IMG/VR virus record: IMGVR_UViG_2718218139_000001
Strand: one strand, 5' to 3'
DNA: 64,000 nt
Source of the DNA: a virus
Taxonomy: Duplodnaviria > Heunggongvirae > Uroviricota > Caudoviricetes
The position numbers and the translations under genes are program-made. Below the pieces are notes generated by a model. The model made no database searches. It was not told where the DNA came from and worked only from the letters and a program-made list of their open reading frames with translations. This document shows positions 1-6,584 of this stretch, piece after piece (within the stretch, counting starts at the first letter, position 1; each line of letters opens with the position of its first letter).

Positions 1-44
1 CTCTTTGTTTAGTTAAAAATACATCGTTGGTATAGGTAGGGATT

Positions 45-70
45 AAGACTAAAACGTTGGTTTGGGGGAA
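45..70 (+). other. crossover site 1 of tail-fibre cassette array (hix/gix/cix-like 12-2-12 site)
   Basis: AAGACTAAAACG-TT-GGTTTGGGGGAA; AAAC-NN-GGTTT signature; right half-site identical in all eight sites. Confidence 0.5.
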
Positions 71-538
71 GGCTCAGCATTGCCCGTTGGCGTGCCCGTT
101 CCGTGGCCCTTAGAAACACCGCCAACGGGGTGGCTGAAATGTAACGGAGCAGCATTTTCTTCTGAAATGTATCCCAAACTGGCAAAGGCCTACCCCACCA
201 ATAAATTACCGGATTTACGGGGAGAATTTATTCGCGGCTGGGATGATGGGCGCGGGGTGGATGCGGGACGTGCTTTATTGAGCATTCAGACAGGAATGCT
301 GGAAAAGCACCGACATATTGTTGTAGCCAATGATGGTTACGACACAAAAGATGAATGGGAGCTGGCGACAATTTTCAAAAAAACATACACACAAGGACGG
401 GGGCTTGATGCCTCAAATACAGGAGGGAATTTGATTCCATCACCGACACTTCATTCTCGAGGGAGTATTGGTAATACTGGCGGGAGTGAAACCCGTCCAC
501 GAAATATCGCATTTAATTACATCGTAAGGGCGGCATAA
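62..538 (+). CDS. promoterless tail-fibre tip cassette 1 (alternative C-terminus of tail fibre)
   Basis: ORF track; conserved N block GEGSALPVGVPVPWP..LPDLRGEFIRGWDDGRG, variable core, conserved C block ETRPRNIAFNYIVRAA shared with 3' end of gene at 4005-6584. Confidence 0.8.
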   Translation: MGEGSALPVGVPVPWPLETPPTGWLKCNGAAFSSEMYPKLAKAYPTNKLPDLRGEFIRGWDDGRGVDAGRALLSIQTGMLEKHRHIVVANDGYDTKDEWELATIFKKTYTQGRGLDASNTGGNLIPSPTLHSRGSIGNTGGSETRPRNIAFNYIVRAA

Positions 539-557
539 AAACGTTGGTTTGGGGGAA
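532..557 (+). other. crossover site 2 (hix/gix/cix-like)
   Basis: GGCATAAAAACG-TT-GGTTTGGGGGAA; overlaps stop codon of cassette 1. Confidence 0.5.
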
Positions 558-1010
558 GGCTCTGCACTGCCTGTTGGTGTACCTGTTCCGTGGCCCTCAG
601 CCACTCCGCCAACGGGGTGGCTGAAATGTAACGGAGCAGCATTTTCTTCTGAAAAGTACCCAAATCTGGCAAAGGCTTACCCTACTAATAAATTGCCGGA
701 TTTACGCGGTGAATTTATTCGTGGCTGGGATGACGGACGTGGTGTGGATGCCGGGCGACAATTATTATCTTCACAGGGGGATGCAATAAGAAATATTGAG
801 GGGTTCGCCGATGGCGGGATTGGCATGTCTTTTGATGCAATCAGAGGGGCTTTTTATGATGCAGGAACACGATCTGCGAGAATGCCGAATAACACAACTG
901 ATATAGGCAAAACCGATGACCTTGGATTCGACGCCTCTCGTGTCGTGCCAACAGCTAATGAAAACCGTCCTCGTAATATTGCCTTTAATTATATCGTAAG
1001 GGCGGCATAA
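549..1010 (+). CDS. promoterless tail-fibre tip cassette 2
   Basis: ORF track; same conserved flanking blocks, different variable core. Confidence 0.8.
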   Translation: MGEGSALPVGVPVPWPSATPPTGWLKCNGAAFSSEKYPNLAKAYPTNKLPDLRGEFIRGWDDGRGVDAGRQLLSSQGDAIRNIEGFADGGIGMSFDAIRGAFYDAGTRSARMPNNTTDIGKTDDLGFDASRVVPTANENRPRNIAFNYIVRAA

Positions 1011-1029
1011 AAACGTTGGTTTGGGGGAA
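1004..1029 (+). other. crossover site 3 (hix/gix/cix-like)
   Basis: GGCATAAAAACG-TT-GGTTTGGGGGAA. Confidence 0.5.
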
Positions 1030-1488
1030 GGCTCGGCACTGCCCGTTGGTGTACCTGTTCCATGGCCCTCAGCCACACCGCCAACGGGGTGGCTGAAATG
1101 CAATGGTGCAGCATTTTCTTCTGAAAAGTACCCAAATCTGGCAAAGGTTTACCCTACTAATAAATTGCCGGATCTACGGGGCGAATTTATTCGCGGCTGG
1201 GATGACGGGCGGGGGATTGACTCTGGCCGTAATTTATTATCTGCACAGAATGATGCAATTCAGAATATTGTTGGTTCTTTCGGGCGTACTCAGCTTTTTA
1301 GAGATGTACTTAGTTCAGGGCCATTTAGTCAACATGGTCAAGTATTATCTACAGGCCTAAAGGAAACGGAAATTATTGAGGGTTATGGCTCTTATAACTG
1401 GACATTCGACGCCTCTCGCTCAGTTCGTACAGCATCTGAAACCCGCCCCCGTAATATTGCATTTAATTACATCGTAAGGGCGGCATAA
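1021..1488 (+). CDS. promoterless tail-fibre tip cassette 3
   Basis: ORF track; conserved flanking blocks. Confidence 0.8.
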   Translation: MGEGSALPVGVPVPWPSATPPTGWLKCNGAAFSSEKYPNLAKVYPTNKLPDLRGEFIRGWDDGRGIDSGRNLLSAQNDAIQNIVGSFGRTQLFRDVLSSGPFSQHGQVLSTGLKETEIIEGYGSYNWTFDASRSVRTASETRPRNIAFNYIVRAA

Positions 1489-1507
1489 AAACGTTGGTTT
1501 GGGGGAA
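1482..1507 (+). other. crossover site 4 (hix/gix/cix-like)
   Basis: GGCATAAAAACG-TT-GGTTTGGGGGAA. Confidence 0.5.
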
Positions 1508-1927
1508 GGCTCTGCACTGCCTGTTGGTGTGCCCGTTCCGTGGCCCTTAGAAACACCACCAACGGGCTGGCTAAAATGCAATGGTGCAGCATTTTCTTCT
1601 GAAATGTATCCCAAACTGGCAAAAGCCTACCCCACCAATAAATTACCGGATTTACGCGGTGAATTTATCCGTGGCTGGGATGATGGGCGCGGGATTGATG
1701 CGGGACGTACCCTGCTTTCAGGGCAGGATGGTACAAGTTTTTCTCATTACGGAGGTAATTTCGACATTGGGTCTGGTCATTCAATCAATAACTATGACCA
1801 AATTGTTTCTAACCAACCAGGATTTTCCCGTTTTTCATTTGCAGGGCCTTCACGAGGTGATGGGGTTAATTATGTAACCATTCGTCCTCGTAACATTGCG
1901 TTTAATTATATCGTAAGGGCGGCATGA
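1499..1927 (+). CDS. promoterless tail-fibre tip cassette 4
   Basis: ORF track; variable core related to cassette 6 (..NQPGFSRF..). Confidence 0.8.
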   Translation: MGEGSALPVGVPVPWPLETPPTGWLKCNGAAFSSEMYPKLAKAYPTNKLPDLRGEFIRGWDDGRGIDAGRTLLSGQDGTSFSHYGGNFDIGSGHSINNYDQIVSNQPGFSRFSFAGPSRGDGVNYVTIRPRNIAFNYIVRAA

Positions 1928-1946
1928 AAACGTTGGTTTAGGGGAA
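1921..1946 (+). other. crossover site 5 (hix/gix/cix-like)
   Basis: GGCATGAAAACG-TT-GGTTTAGGGGAA. Confidence 0.45.
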
Positions 1947-2441
1947 GGCTCGGCGCTGCCCGTTGGTGTACCTATTCCATGGCCCTCAGCCACACCGCCA
2001 ACGGGGTGGCTGAAATGCAATGGTGCAGCATTTTCTTCTGAAAAGTACCCAAATCTGGCAAAGGTTTACCCAACGTTAAAATTACCTGATTTACGCGGTG
2101 AATTTATCCGTGGCTGGGATGATGGGCGCGGGGTGGATGCTGGCCGCGCTTTGCTTAATTGGCAGCCACACACAATTTTGGACCATGCACACTATATGGA
2201 ATTATGGACAGGGGACGGACTCGCCGCAGGAAGTGCACGGGAAGGCGTAAATCCAGGAATACTAGCTACATACGGTGACGGGGGAATAGTTAAAACGGAC
2301 GAACCCGGTCATAAGGTGCCTTCCTCACTACGAGCTATTAGCTCTCGTAGTGTTAAACGTTATGGTGAAATTAGTGGAAATGTAGGTACAGAAACTCGCC
2401 CTCGCAACGTTGCATTTAATTATATCGTAAGGGCGGCATAA
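1938..2441 (+). CDS. promoterless tail-fibre tip cassette 5 (no start codon; open frame from site to stop)
   Basis: manual translation in frame from the crossover site gives GLGEGSALPVGVPIPWP...ETRPRNVAFNYIVRAA without stops; ORF track only reports 2133-2441 because no start codon precedes. Confidence 0.7.
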   Translation, partial: LGEGSALPVGVPIPWPSATPPTGWLKCNGAAFSSEKYPNLAKVYPTLKLPDLRGEFIRGWDDGRGVDAGRALLNWQPHTILDHAHYMELWTGDGLAAGSAREGVNPGILATYGDGGIVKTDEPGHKVPSSLRAISSRSVKRYGEISGNVGTETRPRNVAFNYIVRAA

Positions 2442-2460
2442 AAACGTTGGTTTAGGGGAA
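2435..2460 (+). other. crossover site 6 (hix/gix/cix-like)
   Basis: GGCATAAAAACG-TT-GGTTTAGGGGAA. Confidence 0.45.
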
Positions 2461-2880
2461 GGCTCGGCGCTGCCCGTTGGTGTACCTGTTCCATGGCCCT
2501 CCGCCACACCACCAACGGGGTGGCTGAAATGTAACGGAGCAGCATTTTCTTCTGAAAAGTACCCAAATCTGGCAAAGGTTTACCCCACTAATAAATTGCC
2601 GGATCTACGGGGCGAATTTATTCGAGGTTGGGATGATGGACGAGGTGTGGACAATGGGCGAGCATTATTAAGCAGCCAAGAGGCTACAAACTTTTCTCAG
2701 CGTGCCGGAAATATAGGCGATGGTGCAGGGCACGCAATTAATTTTCATGATGGCATCGTCGGAAATCAGCCAGGATTTTCACGATTTAATTTCACCAGTA
2801 ACTCTGTAGGTGATGGTATAAATTTTGTTGCTGTCAGGCCGCGAAATATCGCATTTAATTACATCGTAAGGGCGGCATAA
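2452..2880 (+). CDS. promoterless tail-fibre tip cassette 6
   Basis: open frame from site to stop at 2878-2880; ORF track 2596-2880 is its 3' part. Confidence 0.7.
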   Translation, partial: LGEGSALPVGVPVPWPSATPPTGWLKCNGAAFSSEKYPNLAKVYPTNKLPDLRGEFIRGWDDGRGVDNGRALLSSQEATNFSQRAGNIGDGAGHAINFHDGIVGNQPGFSRFNFTSNSVGDGINFVAVRPRNIAFNYIVRAA

Positions 2881-2899
2881 AAACGTTGGTTTAGGGGAA
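2874..2899 (+). other. crossover site 7 (hix/gix/cix-like)
   Basis: GGCATAAAAACG-TT-GGTTTAGGGGAA. Confidence 0.45.
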
Positions 2900-3388
2900 G
2901 GCTCGGCGCTGCCCGTTGGTGTACCTATTCCATGGCCCTCAGCCACACCGCCAACGGGGTGGCTGAAATGCAATGGTGCAGCATTTTCTTCTGAAAAGTA
3001 CCCAAATCTGGCAAAGGTTTACCCAACGTTAAAATTACCTGATTTACGCGGTGAGTTTATCCGTGGCTGGGATGATGGGCGAGGGATTGACTCTGGTCGC
3101 TCTATTTTAAGCGAGCAAGGATATGCAACGGAGGATCATGCTCACGGATTACCGTCAAAATCAACCGTAGCAACTGACCGCTCAATTAATTTCTACTTTG
3201 ACGAGGCATGGGCTACTAGTGGTAATACGGGAGTTATCAGATGGGGGAACACAAGCGATGCAGGATTGCCAGCCCCTAATTATGGAACTTTTAAAACATA
3301 TAAACAGTCCGTAGCTAATTTAGGTACTGCTGGCTTAGAAACCCGCCCTCGTAATATTGCATTTAATTATATTGTGAGGGCGGATTAA
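2891..3388 (+). CDS. promoterless tail-fibre tip cassette 7
   Basis: manual translation in frame: conserved N block ... ETRPRNIAFNYIVRAD then TAA at 3386-3388; no start codon so absent from ORF track. Confidence 0.65.
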   Translation, partial: LGEGSALPVGVPIPWPSATPPTGWLKCNGAAFSSEKYPNLAKVYPTLKLPDLRGEFIRGWDDGRGIDSGRSILSEQGYATEDHAHGLPSKSTVATDRSINFYFDEAWATSGNTGVIRWGNTSDAGLPAPNYGTFKTYKQSVANLGTAGLETRPRNIAFNYIVRAD

Positions 3389-3393
3389 TTATA

Positions 3394-4005
3394 TCAACTG
3401 GCTGTAGAAAGTTGTTTTTCAGGCCAGTTGAGATCTGGTGCCGTGGTTAAATCCATCGCGTTCAGCTCGTCTATATAATCTAGCACGGAGTTAAGCTGCG
3501 TGGTTTCTGCCTGCGTCAACTTCCGTCCAGCCCGTAATTTCAACTGAATCAGACTAATGGAATCCATCGCAGTATCAATCAATGACTGACGTTTTGTTTC
3601 TGCTGCCTCTACAGCTGCACTATGTTGAGCCTCAGTATCAACCACCCATTTCTCTCCATCCCATTTGTCGTATGGTGTTAGCGGGGCGATAGTGGTTGTA
3701 TTTTCCGGATAGTCACCCAACACCGTGATTTCTTCGGGATTCCCAGTGTCAATGCTATAGACAGTTTCGCCACGATGATCTGGCACATACTCCCATGAAC
3801 TTAAATCCTCTGAACGGAGAATCGCATAACCTGCTTTATGTGAGCCTGGAGCATCCAAACAAGAATTTGCCGGAATACCAACGCCAACAGCAAGATATTC
3901 AGTTGATGCAGAAATATATTCCCGATTACCACCATCATAGTTATAAACGATAATGTTTCCTGCCTGTATGGCTATAAGTTCGCTATTTAATATCGCATTA
4001 TCCAT
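3394..4005 (-). CDS. tail fibre assembly chaperone (Tfa / Mu-U-like)
   Basis: 203 aa; N-terminal ..YNYDGG..EY.. and C-terminal Tfa-type motifs; start ATG overlaps stop of fibre gene (TAATG). Confidence 0.8.
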   Translation of the reverse strand: MDNAILNSELIAIQAGNIIVYNYDGGNREYISASTEYLAVGVGIPANSCLDAPGSHKAGYAILRSEDLSSWEYVPDHRGETVYSIDTGNPEEITVLGDYPENTTTIAPLTPYDKWDGEKWVVDTEAQHSAAVEAAETKRQSLIDTAMDSISLIQLKLRAGRKLTQAETTQLNSVLDYIDELNAMDLTTAPDLNWPEKQLSTAS

Positions 4006-6584
4006 TATGCTGCTCTCACAATATAATTGAAGGCAATGTTACGTGGGCGGGTTTCATTCCCCCCAGATAACTCCGTTCTGTATTGACTGGTAAATTTACC
4101 ATTAATCGCTCCTTGCCGGACGGCGTTATCTGTCGACAACAGACTATCCCCCCCTCTGTCATTTGGCACCAATACCGTGTTATCCCACGCGTCCCATGAC
4201 CGAATATTATGATAATGACTTCCTGTTAACCACCCCTGTATGCTTAAGATGACCCTTCCCGCATCCACACCTCGCCCATCATCCCAACCACGGATAAACT
4301 CACCGCGTAAATCCGGTAATTTATTGGTGGGGTAGGCCTTTGCCAGTTTGGGATACATTTCAGAAGAAAATGCTGCACCATTGCATTTTAGCCAGCCCGT
4401 TGGTGGTGTTTCTAAGGGCCACGGAACGGGCACACCAACAGGCAGTGCAGAGCCTTCCCCCAAACCAAGGTAATCAAGAACGCTCTGAATACTGGTCTTA
4501 CCAAGAATGGCGCGTCCAACACTTGTCAATGCAGTTAACGCGGCACGATCAACACCTGTGAAATAAGGGAGTTTATCTGCTGCTGTAGCTAGTGCCGCTA
4601 GAGCAGTGAGCGTAGCGTCTGCCGCTTGCTTTCCATTAGCCAAATCATATGCAGCCTTGACAGCTTTCGGTGTGGCGGCCAGCACTTCAGACGTGCTGTT
4701 AGTGGCACTACTGAGCTGAGTGATGCCTTTCGCTGTCAATGAAGCTGTTGGCACACCAGTGATCTGATTCCAGGGATGTGTATGACTGGATGGTGCCTTT
4801 CCGGCTGCTAGATCGTATGCAGCTTTAACCGCTTTTGGAGTTGCAGCTAATGTTTCAGAAGTGCTGTTGGTGTCGCTACTGAGCTGAACTATCCCTTTTT
4901 GTGTCGTGGTTGCATCCTGGGCTGTATACTTCCCGTTAGCCAAATCATATGCAGCCTTGACAGCTTTCGGTGTGGCGGCCAGCACTTCGGACGTACTGTT
5001 AGTGGCACTACTGAGCTGAGTGATGCCTTTCGCTGTCAATGAAGCTGTTGGCACACCAGTGATCTGATTCCAGGGATGTGTATGACTGGATGGTGCCTTT
5101 CCGGCTGCTAGATCGTATGCAGCTTTAACCGCTTTTGGAGTTGCAGCTAATGTTTCAGAAGTGCTGTTGGTGTCGCTACTGAGCTGAACTATCCCTTTTT
5201 GTGTCGTGGTTGCATCCTGGGCTGTATACTTCCCGTTAGCCAGGTCATATGCAGCCTTGACAGCTTTCGGTGTGGCGGCCAGCACTTCAGACGTGCTGTT
5301 AGTGGCACTACTGAGCTGAGTGATGCCTTTCGCTGTCAATGAAGCTGTTGGCACACCAGTGATCTGATTCCAGGGATGTGTATGACTGGATGGTGCCTTT
5401 CCGGCTGCTAGATCGTATGCAGCTTTAACCGCTTTTGGAGTTGCAGCTAATGTTTCAGAAGTGCTGTTGGTGTCGCTACTGAGCTGAACTATCCCTTTTT
5501 GTGTCGTGGTTGCATCCTGGGCTGTATACTTCCCGTTAGCCAGGTCATATGCAGCCTTGACAGCTTTCGGTGTGGCGGCCAGCACTTCAGACGTGCTGTT
5601 AGTGGCACTACTGAGCTGAGTGATGCCTTTCGCTGTCAATGAAGCTGTTGGCACACCAGTGATCTGATTCCAGGGATGTGTATGACTGGATGGTGCCTTT
5701 CCGGCTGCTAGATCGTATGCAGCTTTAACCGCTTTTGGAGTTGCAGCTAATGTTTCAGAAGTGCTGTTGGTGTCGCTACTGAGCTGAACTATCCCTTTTT
5801 GTGTCGTGGTTGCATCCTGGGCTGTATACTTCCCGTTAGCCAGGTCATATGCAGCCTTGACAGCTTTCGGTGTGGCGGCCAGCACTTCGGACGTACTGTT
5901 AGTGGCACTACTGAGCTGAACTAATCCCTTTTGCGTTGTGCTTGCATCCTGCGCCGTATATTTGCTTTTCGCCAGATCGTAGGCTTTTTTAACTGCCAGC
6001 GAACTCGCAGCAACATCACTTCTGGTACTGGTTACAGAGTCTGAAATATCAATGCCGATCGTGCGGTTGATACGCTCGGATGTATCAATCATCTCTTGAG
6101 TAATGGTAGATACGCCAGCAGGGATATTCACCGTACAAACCAGCAGTTCCCCATCACCTAACTGATATGAATCGGTATAGGTTCTGGCAACAAATTCAGC
6201 TGCATGAATATGTGACGCGGTATTCACCTGATAGGTATCTTCTCCAAGAAGGTATCTTCCCTTCAGCACAATTGCATATTTCTTGCCTGCGTTAAGTGCA
6301 AGAGAGATATCCTTACGATGCTGAATAGTTACCTGGTAGAATTCACCAATATCCACTGACGCCGCGCCAGCGGTTTTATCTCCATCCACTGAGGTGATTA
6401 ACAGGTTCATTCCACCGCCAGGCTTAGGCAAGAAACCAGCATAAAATCCCGGGTCAACAATTCCCCTGAATTTTCGGTTTAGAGCGGCTGACAGATATGG
6501 TTCGTGGTATTGCACATCAGCCACCAGAGCCAACGACTCGGGTGATGGGTAAGTAACCGATGTAACAACTGTAACGTCATTCAT
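4005..6584 (-). CDS. tail fibre protein (P1 S-like): constant part, repeat shaft and currently expressed tip
   Basis: ORF track 4005-6671; start placed at ATG 6584 preceded by AAGGA; C-terminus carries the same conserved blocks as the cassettes. Confidence 0.85.
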   Translation of the reverse strand: MNDVTVVTSVTYPSPESLALVADVQYHEPYLSAALNRKFRGIVDPGFYAGFLPKPGGGMNLLITSVDGDKTAGAASVDIGEFYQVTIQHRKDISLALNAGKKYAIVLKGRYLLGEDTYQVNTASHIHAAEFVARTYTDSYQLGDGELLVCTVNIPAGVSTITQEMIDTSERINRTIGIDISDSVTSTRSDVAASSLAVKKAYDLAKSKYTAQDASTTQKGLVQLSSATNSTSEVLAATPKAVKAAYDLANGKYTAQDATTTQKGIVQLSSDTNSTSETLAATPKAVKAAYDLAAGKAPSSHTHPWNQITGVPTASLTAKGITQLSSATNSTSEVLAATPKAVKAAYDLANGKYTAQDATTTQKGIVQLSSDTNSTSETLAATPKAVKAAYDLAAGKAPSSHTHPWNQITGVPTASLTAKGITQLSSATNSTSEVLAATPKAVKAAYDLANGKYTAQDATTTQKGIVQLSSDTNSTSETLAATPKAVKAAYDLAAGKAPSSHTHPWNQITGVPTASLTAKGITQLSSATNSTSEVLAATPKAVKAAYDLANGKYTAQDATTTQKGIVQLSSDTNSTSETLAATPKAVKAAYDLAAGKAPSSHTHPWNQITGVPTASLTAKGITQLSSATNSTSEVLAATPKAVKAAYDLANGKQAADATLTALAALATAADKLPYFTGVDRAALTALTSVGRAILGKTSIQSVLDYLGLGEGSALPVGVPVPWPLETPPTGWLKCNGAAFSSEMYPKLAKAYPTNKLPDLRGEFIRGWDDGRGVDAGRVILSIQGWLTGSHYHNIRSWDAWDNTVLVPNDRGGDSLLSTDNAVRQGAINGKFTSQYRTELSGGNETRPRNIAFNYIVRAA
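4455..4480 (-). other. crossover site inside expressed tail-fibre gene (inverted relative to cassette sites)
   Basis: TTCCCCCAAACC-AA-GGTAATCAAGAA on + strand; homology with cassettes begins exactly at the core; outer half-site TTCTTGATTACC resembles hixL half-site. Confidence 0.55.
4635..5918. repeat. about 4.3 tandem copies of a near-identical 300-bp coding repeat in the fibre shaft
   Basis: sequence lines 4681-4920, 4981-5220, 5281-5520, 5581-5820 are essentially identical; encodes repeated LAATPKAVKAAYDLA units. Confidence 0.9.

Follow-up and report, generated by a model that had tools for sequence, protein, structure and literature searches.

Region 45–4480 of a 64,000-nucleotide stretch of viral DNA (Caudoviricetes; IMG/VR record IMGVR_UViG_2718218139_000001; the whole stretch is referred to below as the window) is a DNA inversion switch of the p15B Min type, with which a P1-like phage-plasmid would change its host range. 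It holds eight 26-bp crossover (mix) sites, seven silent tail fibre tip cassettes on the + strand (C1–C7), one tip fused to the tail fibre gene S on the − strand (the expressed tip, E) and a single tfa gene. Four of the eight tips (E, C1, C5 and C7) carry a true His-x-His (HxH) motif, which aligns with the collar-proximal metal site common to the phage T4 fibre proteins gp12 and gp37. The account as a whole, in which the switch is of the Min type, three HxH motifs build a six-histidine metal core in four tips and the same position is filled otherwise in the other four, is one that we regard as probable.

All eight tips are built alike: 76 near-constant residues that include a full Collar domain are followed by a variable segment of 52–77 residues and by a constant end, RPRN(I/V)AFNYIVRA. 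The Collar profile (PF07484, gathering cut-off 24 bits) is found in 8/8 tips at 54.9–56.3 bits (E ~5e-15), where residues 10–57 match it over its full length (1–57), and the variable parts share 11–29% identity with one another, save for C4 and C6, at 54%. The tip collar and last strand match T4 gp37 (PDB 2XGF) and T4 gp12 (1OCY, 1PDI, 5IV5), and the C-terminal strand (E-T/N-R-P-x-N-I-x-x-N-Y-I) aligns to the C-termini of gp37 (NIAFNYIVRL) and gp12 (ETRPWNISLNYII). The parts of gp37 that are homologous to the tip collar and last strand, residues 811–881 and 1010–1026, form the collar domain D10, into which residues 882–1009 are inserted (PMC6957217), and the variable segment of a cassette lies at the same topological position as that insertion. 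Every cassette would be a complete receptor-binding tip, in which the chain leaves the constant Collar, passes through the variable insert of 52–77 residues and comes back to the collar as the constant last strand.

The collar parts of the tips (62–290, 549–770, 1021–1240, 1499–1710, 1938–2150, 2452–2670, 2891–3110 and 4236–4463) come in two flavours, one found in E, C1 and C4 (...WPLETPP...SSEMYPKLAKAYPTN) and the other in C2, C3, C5, C6 and C7 (...WPSATPP...SSEKYPNLAK(A/V)YPT(N/L)). Compared with the expressed copy, the collar DNA of C4 is 96% identical over 215 nt and that of C6 and C7 about 81–82% identical. The mosaic suggests that, besides site-specific inversion, the cassettes have undergone homologous exchange or gene conversion.

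The HxH motif occupies a single alignment column, residues 83 and 85, 7–9 residues after the invariant Gln76. It reads GSHYHNIR in E (the last 152 residues of S and the stop codon, 4005–4463, − strand; H-Y-H codons 4209–4217), EKHRHIV in C1 (158 residues, 62–538; H-R-H codons 308–316), DHAHYME in C5 (167 residues, 1938–2441; H-A-H codons 2184–2192) and EDHAHGL in C7 (165 residues, ending in VRAD, 2891–3388; H-A-H codons 3137–3145), the latter three being silent and on the + strand; C2, C3, C4 and C6 are without it. When the eight variable parts were shuffled 200,000 times, HxH appeared at this offset in two tips at most, and four or more tips carried it anywhere in 29 of the 200,000 shuffles. 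The column-exact recurrence of the motif thus far exceeds chance.

The motif is also conserved beyond the window. H-x-H is kept in 120/120 of the closest database relatives of the expressed tip, with Y, C, R, H, N, S, Q, D, A or T between the two histidines and with varying flanks. Among about 150 diverse relatives, each representing a cluster formed at 50% identity, 64 collar units have HxH at Gln+7 and in about 13 others it follows a Glu or Lys anchor, 34 have the sequence D-A-I-x-N-I-x-G instead, and the remainder have other sequences. This pattern of conservation supports a structural role that can be predicted for HxH. One could hold that the histidines contact the receptor or sense pH, or that the pattern arose by chance, and that they have no structural metal role; they do sit in the segment that the initial annotation of the region called variable. 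However, both are invariant, in the four HxH tips as in the 120 closest relatives of the expressed tip, while the remaining variable residues are unrelated (11–25% identity), which fits a structural core and not a specificity determinant, and both align to proven buried ligands, as described below. Chance is rejected by the shuffle statistics, and we attach hardly any credence to the other forms of this explanation.

To relate the motif to solved structures, a profile of 18 diverse HxH-class tips (A3) was searched against all PDB sequences. Its best match was gp37 (2XGF, E=5e-31), and it also matched gp12 (1OCY, E=2e-08). In gp37, the tip HxH aligns to chain residues 99 and 101, or His883 and His885, which stand at the start of the needle domain D11, and the alignment ('...sGrallsaqadelksHaHt...') runs to them without gaps from a conserved GR-x-(V/I/L)-LS-x-(Q/E) motif. 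Conversion of residues 145 and 147 of the 2XGF chain (242 residues) gives His929 and His931, which are iron ligands (PMC6957217), and so validates the numbering offset. In gp12, the tip HxH aligns to the HKH at chain residues 116 and 118, or His445 and His447, in 'EVQKQQMSYHKHAGG'. The gp12 residues bind a zinc ion on the threefold axis in octahedral coordination, with His445 and His447 contributed by each of three chains (PMC3004832), and the HxH motifs of gp37 bind seven iron ions (PMC6957217; PMC12609058; PMC6116203). A six-histidine HxH iron site is found in R-pyocin fibres and P2-type spikes, too, and has been suggested to be a reference point in folding (PMC6116203). Because the column aligns to His445/His447 and His883/His885 and these have a published ligand role, the HxH of E, C1, C5 and C7 is, by homology, the counterpart of the metal site that gp12 and gp37 share next to the collar.

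We infer from this homology that E, C1, C5 and C7 bind metal, most likely as one buried ion at the junction of the collar and the head, on the axis of the trimer. The insert of these four tips begins with Q-x6-H-x-H, and the six histidine side chains of the trimer would most probably hold a single Fe(II) or Zn(II) in octahedral geometry on the threefold axis, where the collar meets the insert. The ion would keep the chains in register, help them to fold and give the intertwined trimer a rigid core, with receptor contacts made by the variable residues beyond it. The site is most likely one of folding and registration and not a multi-metal needle of the gp37 type.

Several points weigh against this interpretation. 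The motif is not required for the collar-tip fold, since four of the tips and roughly half of the family lack it. Being derived from HxH-class tips, the A3 profile favours an alignment of histidine to histidine, although the spacing from the GR-x-x-LS-x-Q/E motif, which is free of gaps, supports the alignment independently. The zinc of gp12 may have come from purification (PMC6116203). The clustering of the histidines is predicted from homology, and the monomer model is unreliable in the variable part: an AlphaFold2 model of the expressed tip (18-sequence alignment) has a mean predicted local distance difference test score (pLDDT) of 60, with 80–90 at residues 11–50 and below 50 at residues 56–79 and 99–124. 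In a Foldseek search with this model, the best matches, 2xgf_A and 1ocy, were obtained through the collar only.

The initial annotation had gone further and likened every tip to T4 gp37, that is, to a metal-loaded needle with a histidine motif in each cassette and metal along a needle-shaped distal tip. The homology of the collar and last strand to gp37 and the alignment of the first gp37 HxH with that of four tips agree with this likeness, and to that extent it holds. The tips, however, have at most one HxH each, as opposed to seven in gp37 (in the gp37 and Bas63 fibres, six or seven HxH motifs are spread over a long six-stranded needle), their insert has 52–77 residues in place of the 128 of gp37 D11, and half of them have no such motif: C2 and C3 have no histidine motif and C4 and C6 have one histidine elsewhere. 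Beyond the Collar, the only Pfam signal is a weak one to the head of gp12 (S_tail_recep_bd, PF14928): a search of the tips returned only E, at 19 bits over the last 33 residues, below the cut-off of 23.8 (E=0.0018). The tips are closer to the compact gp12 head than to the gp37 needle. A gp37-type needle in every tip, already contradicted by the HxH count, the insert length and the tips that have no motif, is rejected as extremely improbable.

The cassettes and the six histidine-containing peptides quoted in that annotation are all present in the sequence, but the claim of a similarly placed histidine-rich motif in each cassette holds for E, C1, C5 and C7, where HxH fills one column, and fails for C2, C3, C4 and C6. 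C2 and C3 had been left out of the list of peptides. C2 (153 residues, 549–1010, +; silent) has GDAIRNIEG at the HxH position (DAIRNIEG motif at 780–803) and no histidine in its variable part, and C3 (155 residues, 1021–1488, +; silent) has NDAIQNIVG (DAIQNIVG motif at 1252–1275) and one unrelated histidine. In a HMMER alignment with 9cuy, the Ile and Gly of DAIxNIxG fall on the two histidine positions, and the N-I-x-G of C2 and C3 is probably a small hydrophobic plug or core that takes the place of the metal. In a PDB search for a structure of a DAIRNI-class tip, the best entries were 9cuy and 9mjn, the short fibre of phage phiTE, with only residues 3–92 built (PMC11972413), so that the region in question is unmodelled.

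C4 and C6 (142 residues each, 1499–1927 and 2452–2880, +; both silent) form a further class. Their peptides, GSGHSIN and GAGHAIN, were taken for the same histidine motif, but they contain a single histidine, His94 (codons 1778–1780 and 2731–2733), which lies 11 residues downstream of the HxH and is not part of an HxH. The HxH column itself reads H-Y-G in C4 and Q-R-A in C6. His94 might still bind metal in a three-histidine site, with one His94 from each chain and with water or carboxylates completing the coordination, in which case six of the eight tips would depend on metal. His94 is kept in relatives from E. coli, Shigella, Citrobacter and Xenorhabdus whose variable parts are just 54–64% identical, which speaks for such a site. 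A Cronobacter relative (P0333), however, has Asn at this position (GSGNAIRD), no solved homologue contains such a site, and His94 is a single histidine and not an HxH; relatives have Q, Y or E in place of the one histidine of C4 that does fall in the HxH column. Because the first-His column varies in this class (H, Q, Y or E) and the GxGH histidine is Asn in Cronobacter, an obligatory metal ligand is unlikely in C4 and C6, and we doubt that metal dependence extends to them.

The initial annotation also held C4 and C6 to be close variants that had diversified recently inside the array. Between the two, the variable parts share 54% identity in protein and 60% in DNA, and even the 5′ constant parts share only 76%. 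Both types occur separately and nearly unchanged (96–100% identity) in other genomes, so recent diversification in the array does not explain them, and a recent duplication is rejected; C4 and C6 are old paralogues of one tip class. As a homologue query, the variable part of C4 alone returned 6 proteins, and the full-length C6 query worked better. Tips of the C2 and C4 types are found elsewhere fused to fibre proteins of 436–711 residues, so the tips without HxH are real tips.

The silent cassettes are promoterless and stand head-to-tail on the + strand between 62 and 3388. The sequence AAACGTTGGTTTRGGGGAAGGCTC precedes every one of them, and a single copy in the opposite orientation lies in S at 4450–4473, giving eight matches where 0 are expected by chance. 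Extended to 26 bp, these crossover sites have 0–1 mismatch to the published p15B mix sites (Table 3 of PMC3241671). Seven mix sites with the AA/TT core are on the + strand and one is on the − strand; that is, an inverted orientation is present. Both outer sites are exact: the site on the invertase side (45–70, +), whose reverse complement is TTCCCCCAAACC AA CGTTTTAGTCTT, is identical to p15B mixMI''L', and the one oppositely oriented site, within S (4455–4480, −; top strand TTCCCCCAAACC AA GGTAATCAAGAA), is identical to mixQ''R'. The six inner sites, at 532–557 (overlapping the C1 stop codon and the C2 start), 1004–1029, 1482–1507, 1921–1946, 2435–2460 and 2874–2899, all on the + strand, each have 0–1 mismatch to mixMr''N'/O''P'/P''Q'.

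The invertase gene is predicted to lie just outside the window, with its start about 11 nt to the left of window base 1: positions 1–60 of the window are identical to positions 3073–3132 of phage vB_EcoM-673R5 (L001), 11 nt from the start of an annotated Hin coding sequence, and a Resolvase+HTH_7 gene adjoins the array in all related P1-like loci examined. In public assemblies of relatives, the same cassettes are arranged and oriented differently, and the tip on S is of the E, C5 or C7 type. Because of the mix-site identity, the flanking Resolvase+HTH_7 gene and the rearranged cassettes in relatives, the setting is identified by comparison as a known multi-site inversion switch of the Din family for fibre tips, isomers of which are known from relatives. 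The switch would be run by a Din-family serine invertase, and recombination between the inverted mix site in S and any of the seven mix sites in front of the promoterless cassettes would put a new C-terminal tip on the fibre. A σ70 promoter scan of positions 1–4700 found sites no more common than in shuffled sequence and is uninformative on the transcription of tfa and the silent cassettes.

By its sequence matches, the element in the window is a P1-like phage-plasmid. Its left 8 kb matches P1-family phages and IncY phage-plasmids, with 96–98% identity to P1, P7, SJ46 and RCS47 on the baseplate/R/S side, and the cassette region has matches in 225 plasmid records, nearly all from E. coli. In gene calls and public annotations, the silent cassettes are separate open reading frames of 142–167 residues that go by the name 'phage tail protein' or, in many records, 'integrase'; these calls reflect an in-frame TTG inside the mix site (62, 549, 1021 and 1499) or mis-naming, and nothing seen in the analysis points to the production of free tips. 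P1-like arrays in five other loci (L002, L006, L007, L010 and L012) have tip classes that do not occur in the window, with TATFIR-TAL-QDYYG, EGTIVS-GFD-DNDTG or TDEFKS-HSH after the invariant Gln. In the related loci examined, from 1 to 10 further tip units accompany the one adjacent to tfa, and with these further classes the tip repertoire of the family is therefore larger than the eight tips of the window.

The tail fibre gene S, a homologue of P1 gpS, extends over 4005–6584 on the − strand, with a likely start (MNDVTVV) at 6584. Its stop codon is overlapped by tfa (3394–4005, −), which encodes the tail fibre assembly chaperone (Caudo_TAP, PF02413, E=3e-30), lies within the invertible DNA directly after the expressed tip and is convergent with C7, a cassette that has no mix site after it. 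Since no mix site separates tfa from the expressed tip between 3394 and 4480, tfa inverts together with this tip. The E tip (HYH), tfa and the convergent C7 tip (HAH) form, in that order, a fixed core block in loci L003–L012, which by itself makes up a two-tip switch in the P2-like prophages L005, L008 and L011 and in the P1-like element L004. In the L007 and L009 assemblies, S is fused to C7 and tfa is directed towards S; L010 has a C5-type tip on S, again with tfa on the opposite strand. The shaft of S contains four tandem 300-nt repeats (4629–5828) that are 99% identical and encode four perfectly repeated units of 100 residues, and such near-perfect repeats suggest recent expansion and variation in fibre length. 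Each unit contains SSHTHPW, also an HxH (codons 5676–5684, 5376–5384, 5076–5084 and 4776–4784), which may mark further axial metal sites.

The motif and the switch are both of known kinds and together make an ordinary, already understood fibre feature, which leaves the current understanding of fibre structure and of inversion switches unchanged; only modestly new is the presence of both metal-site and metal-free tip cores in one array. For annotation, Gln76 + 6 residues can be taken as the point where the constant scaffold gives way to the insert that determines specificity, and tips can be sorted into a few core classes (HxH, DAIxNIxG, GxGH and others). When the host range of P1-like phages or tailocins is engineered, HxH-class tips should be expected to need Fe or Zn for folding. 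An array that combines six-histidine metal tips with tips that fill that position metal-free could also mean that inversion alters the Fe or Zn dependence of folding together with receptor specificity; we consider this improbable, but, if true, it would be a hedge for the phage against metal-limited hosts, for example in the gut or in infection.

The closest known systems differ from the one described here in informative ways. The Min system of p15B, a member of the Din family (Hin, Gin, Cin, Pin, Min), shares with it the identical or near-identical mix sites, both outer sites included, the P1-related IncY phage-plasmid backbone, an adjacent invertase gene (predicted in the case of the window) and the alternative 3′ ends for a fibre gene. 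Six sites are reported for p15B, whereas the window has eight sites and eight tips, and the cassette set varies among the relatives of the window. T4 gp12 (1OCY/1H6W/5LYE) resembles the tips in its Collar, compact inserted head, returning C-terminal strand (ETRPxNIxxNYI) and single HxH, which stands 6 residues after a conserved Gln and holds one metal ion in octahedral coordination on the threefold axis; it differs from the tips in the greater length of the loop that joins collar and HxH and in its head, which is unrelated in sequence, and HxH is present in only 4/8 tips here. With T4 gp37 (2XGF), the tips have in common the collar D10, the last strand and, aligned without gaps, the first HxH (His883/His885) at the collar/needle junction. 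The difference is that gp37 has a 128-residue needle and head with seven HxH-Fe sites and needs gp38 and gp57A, whereas the tips have one HxH or none, an insert of 52–77 residues and a Tfa of the lambda-gpK/Mu-U type. The R-type pyocin fibres and the P2 gpV and phi92 spikes have the same six-histidine octahedral site made from three HxH motifs (PMC6116203), but in unrelated folds (shaft, spike apex) and not beside a Collar, so that their relation to the tips is one of the motif only.

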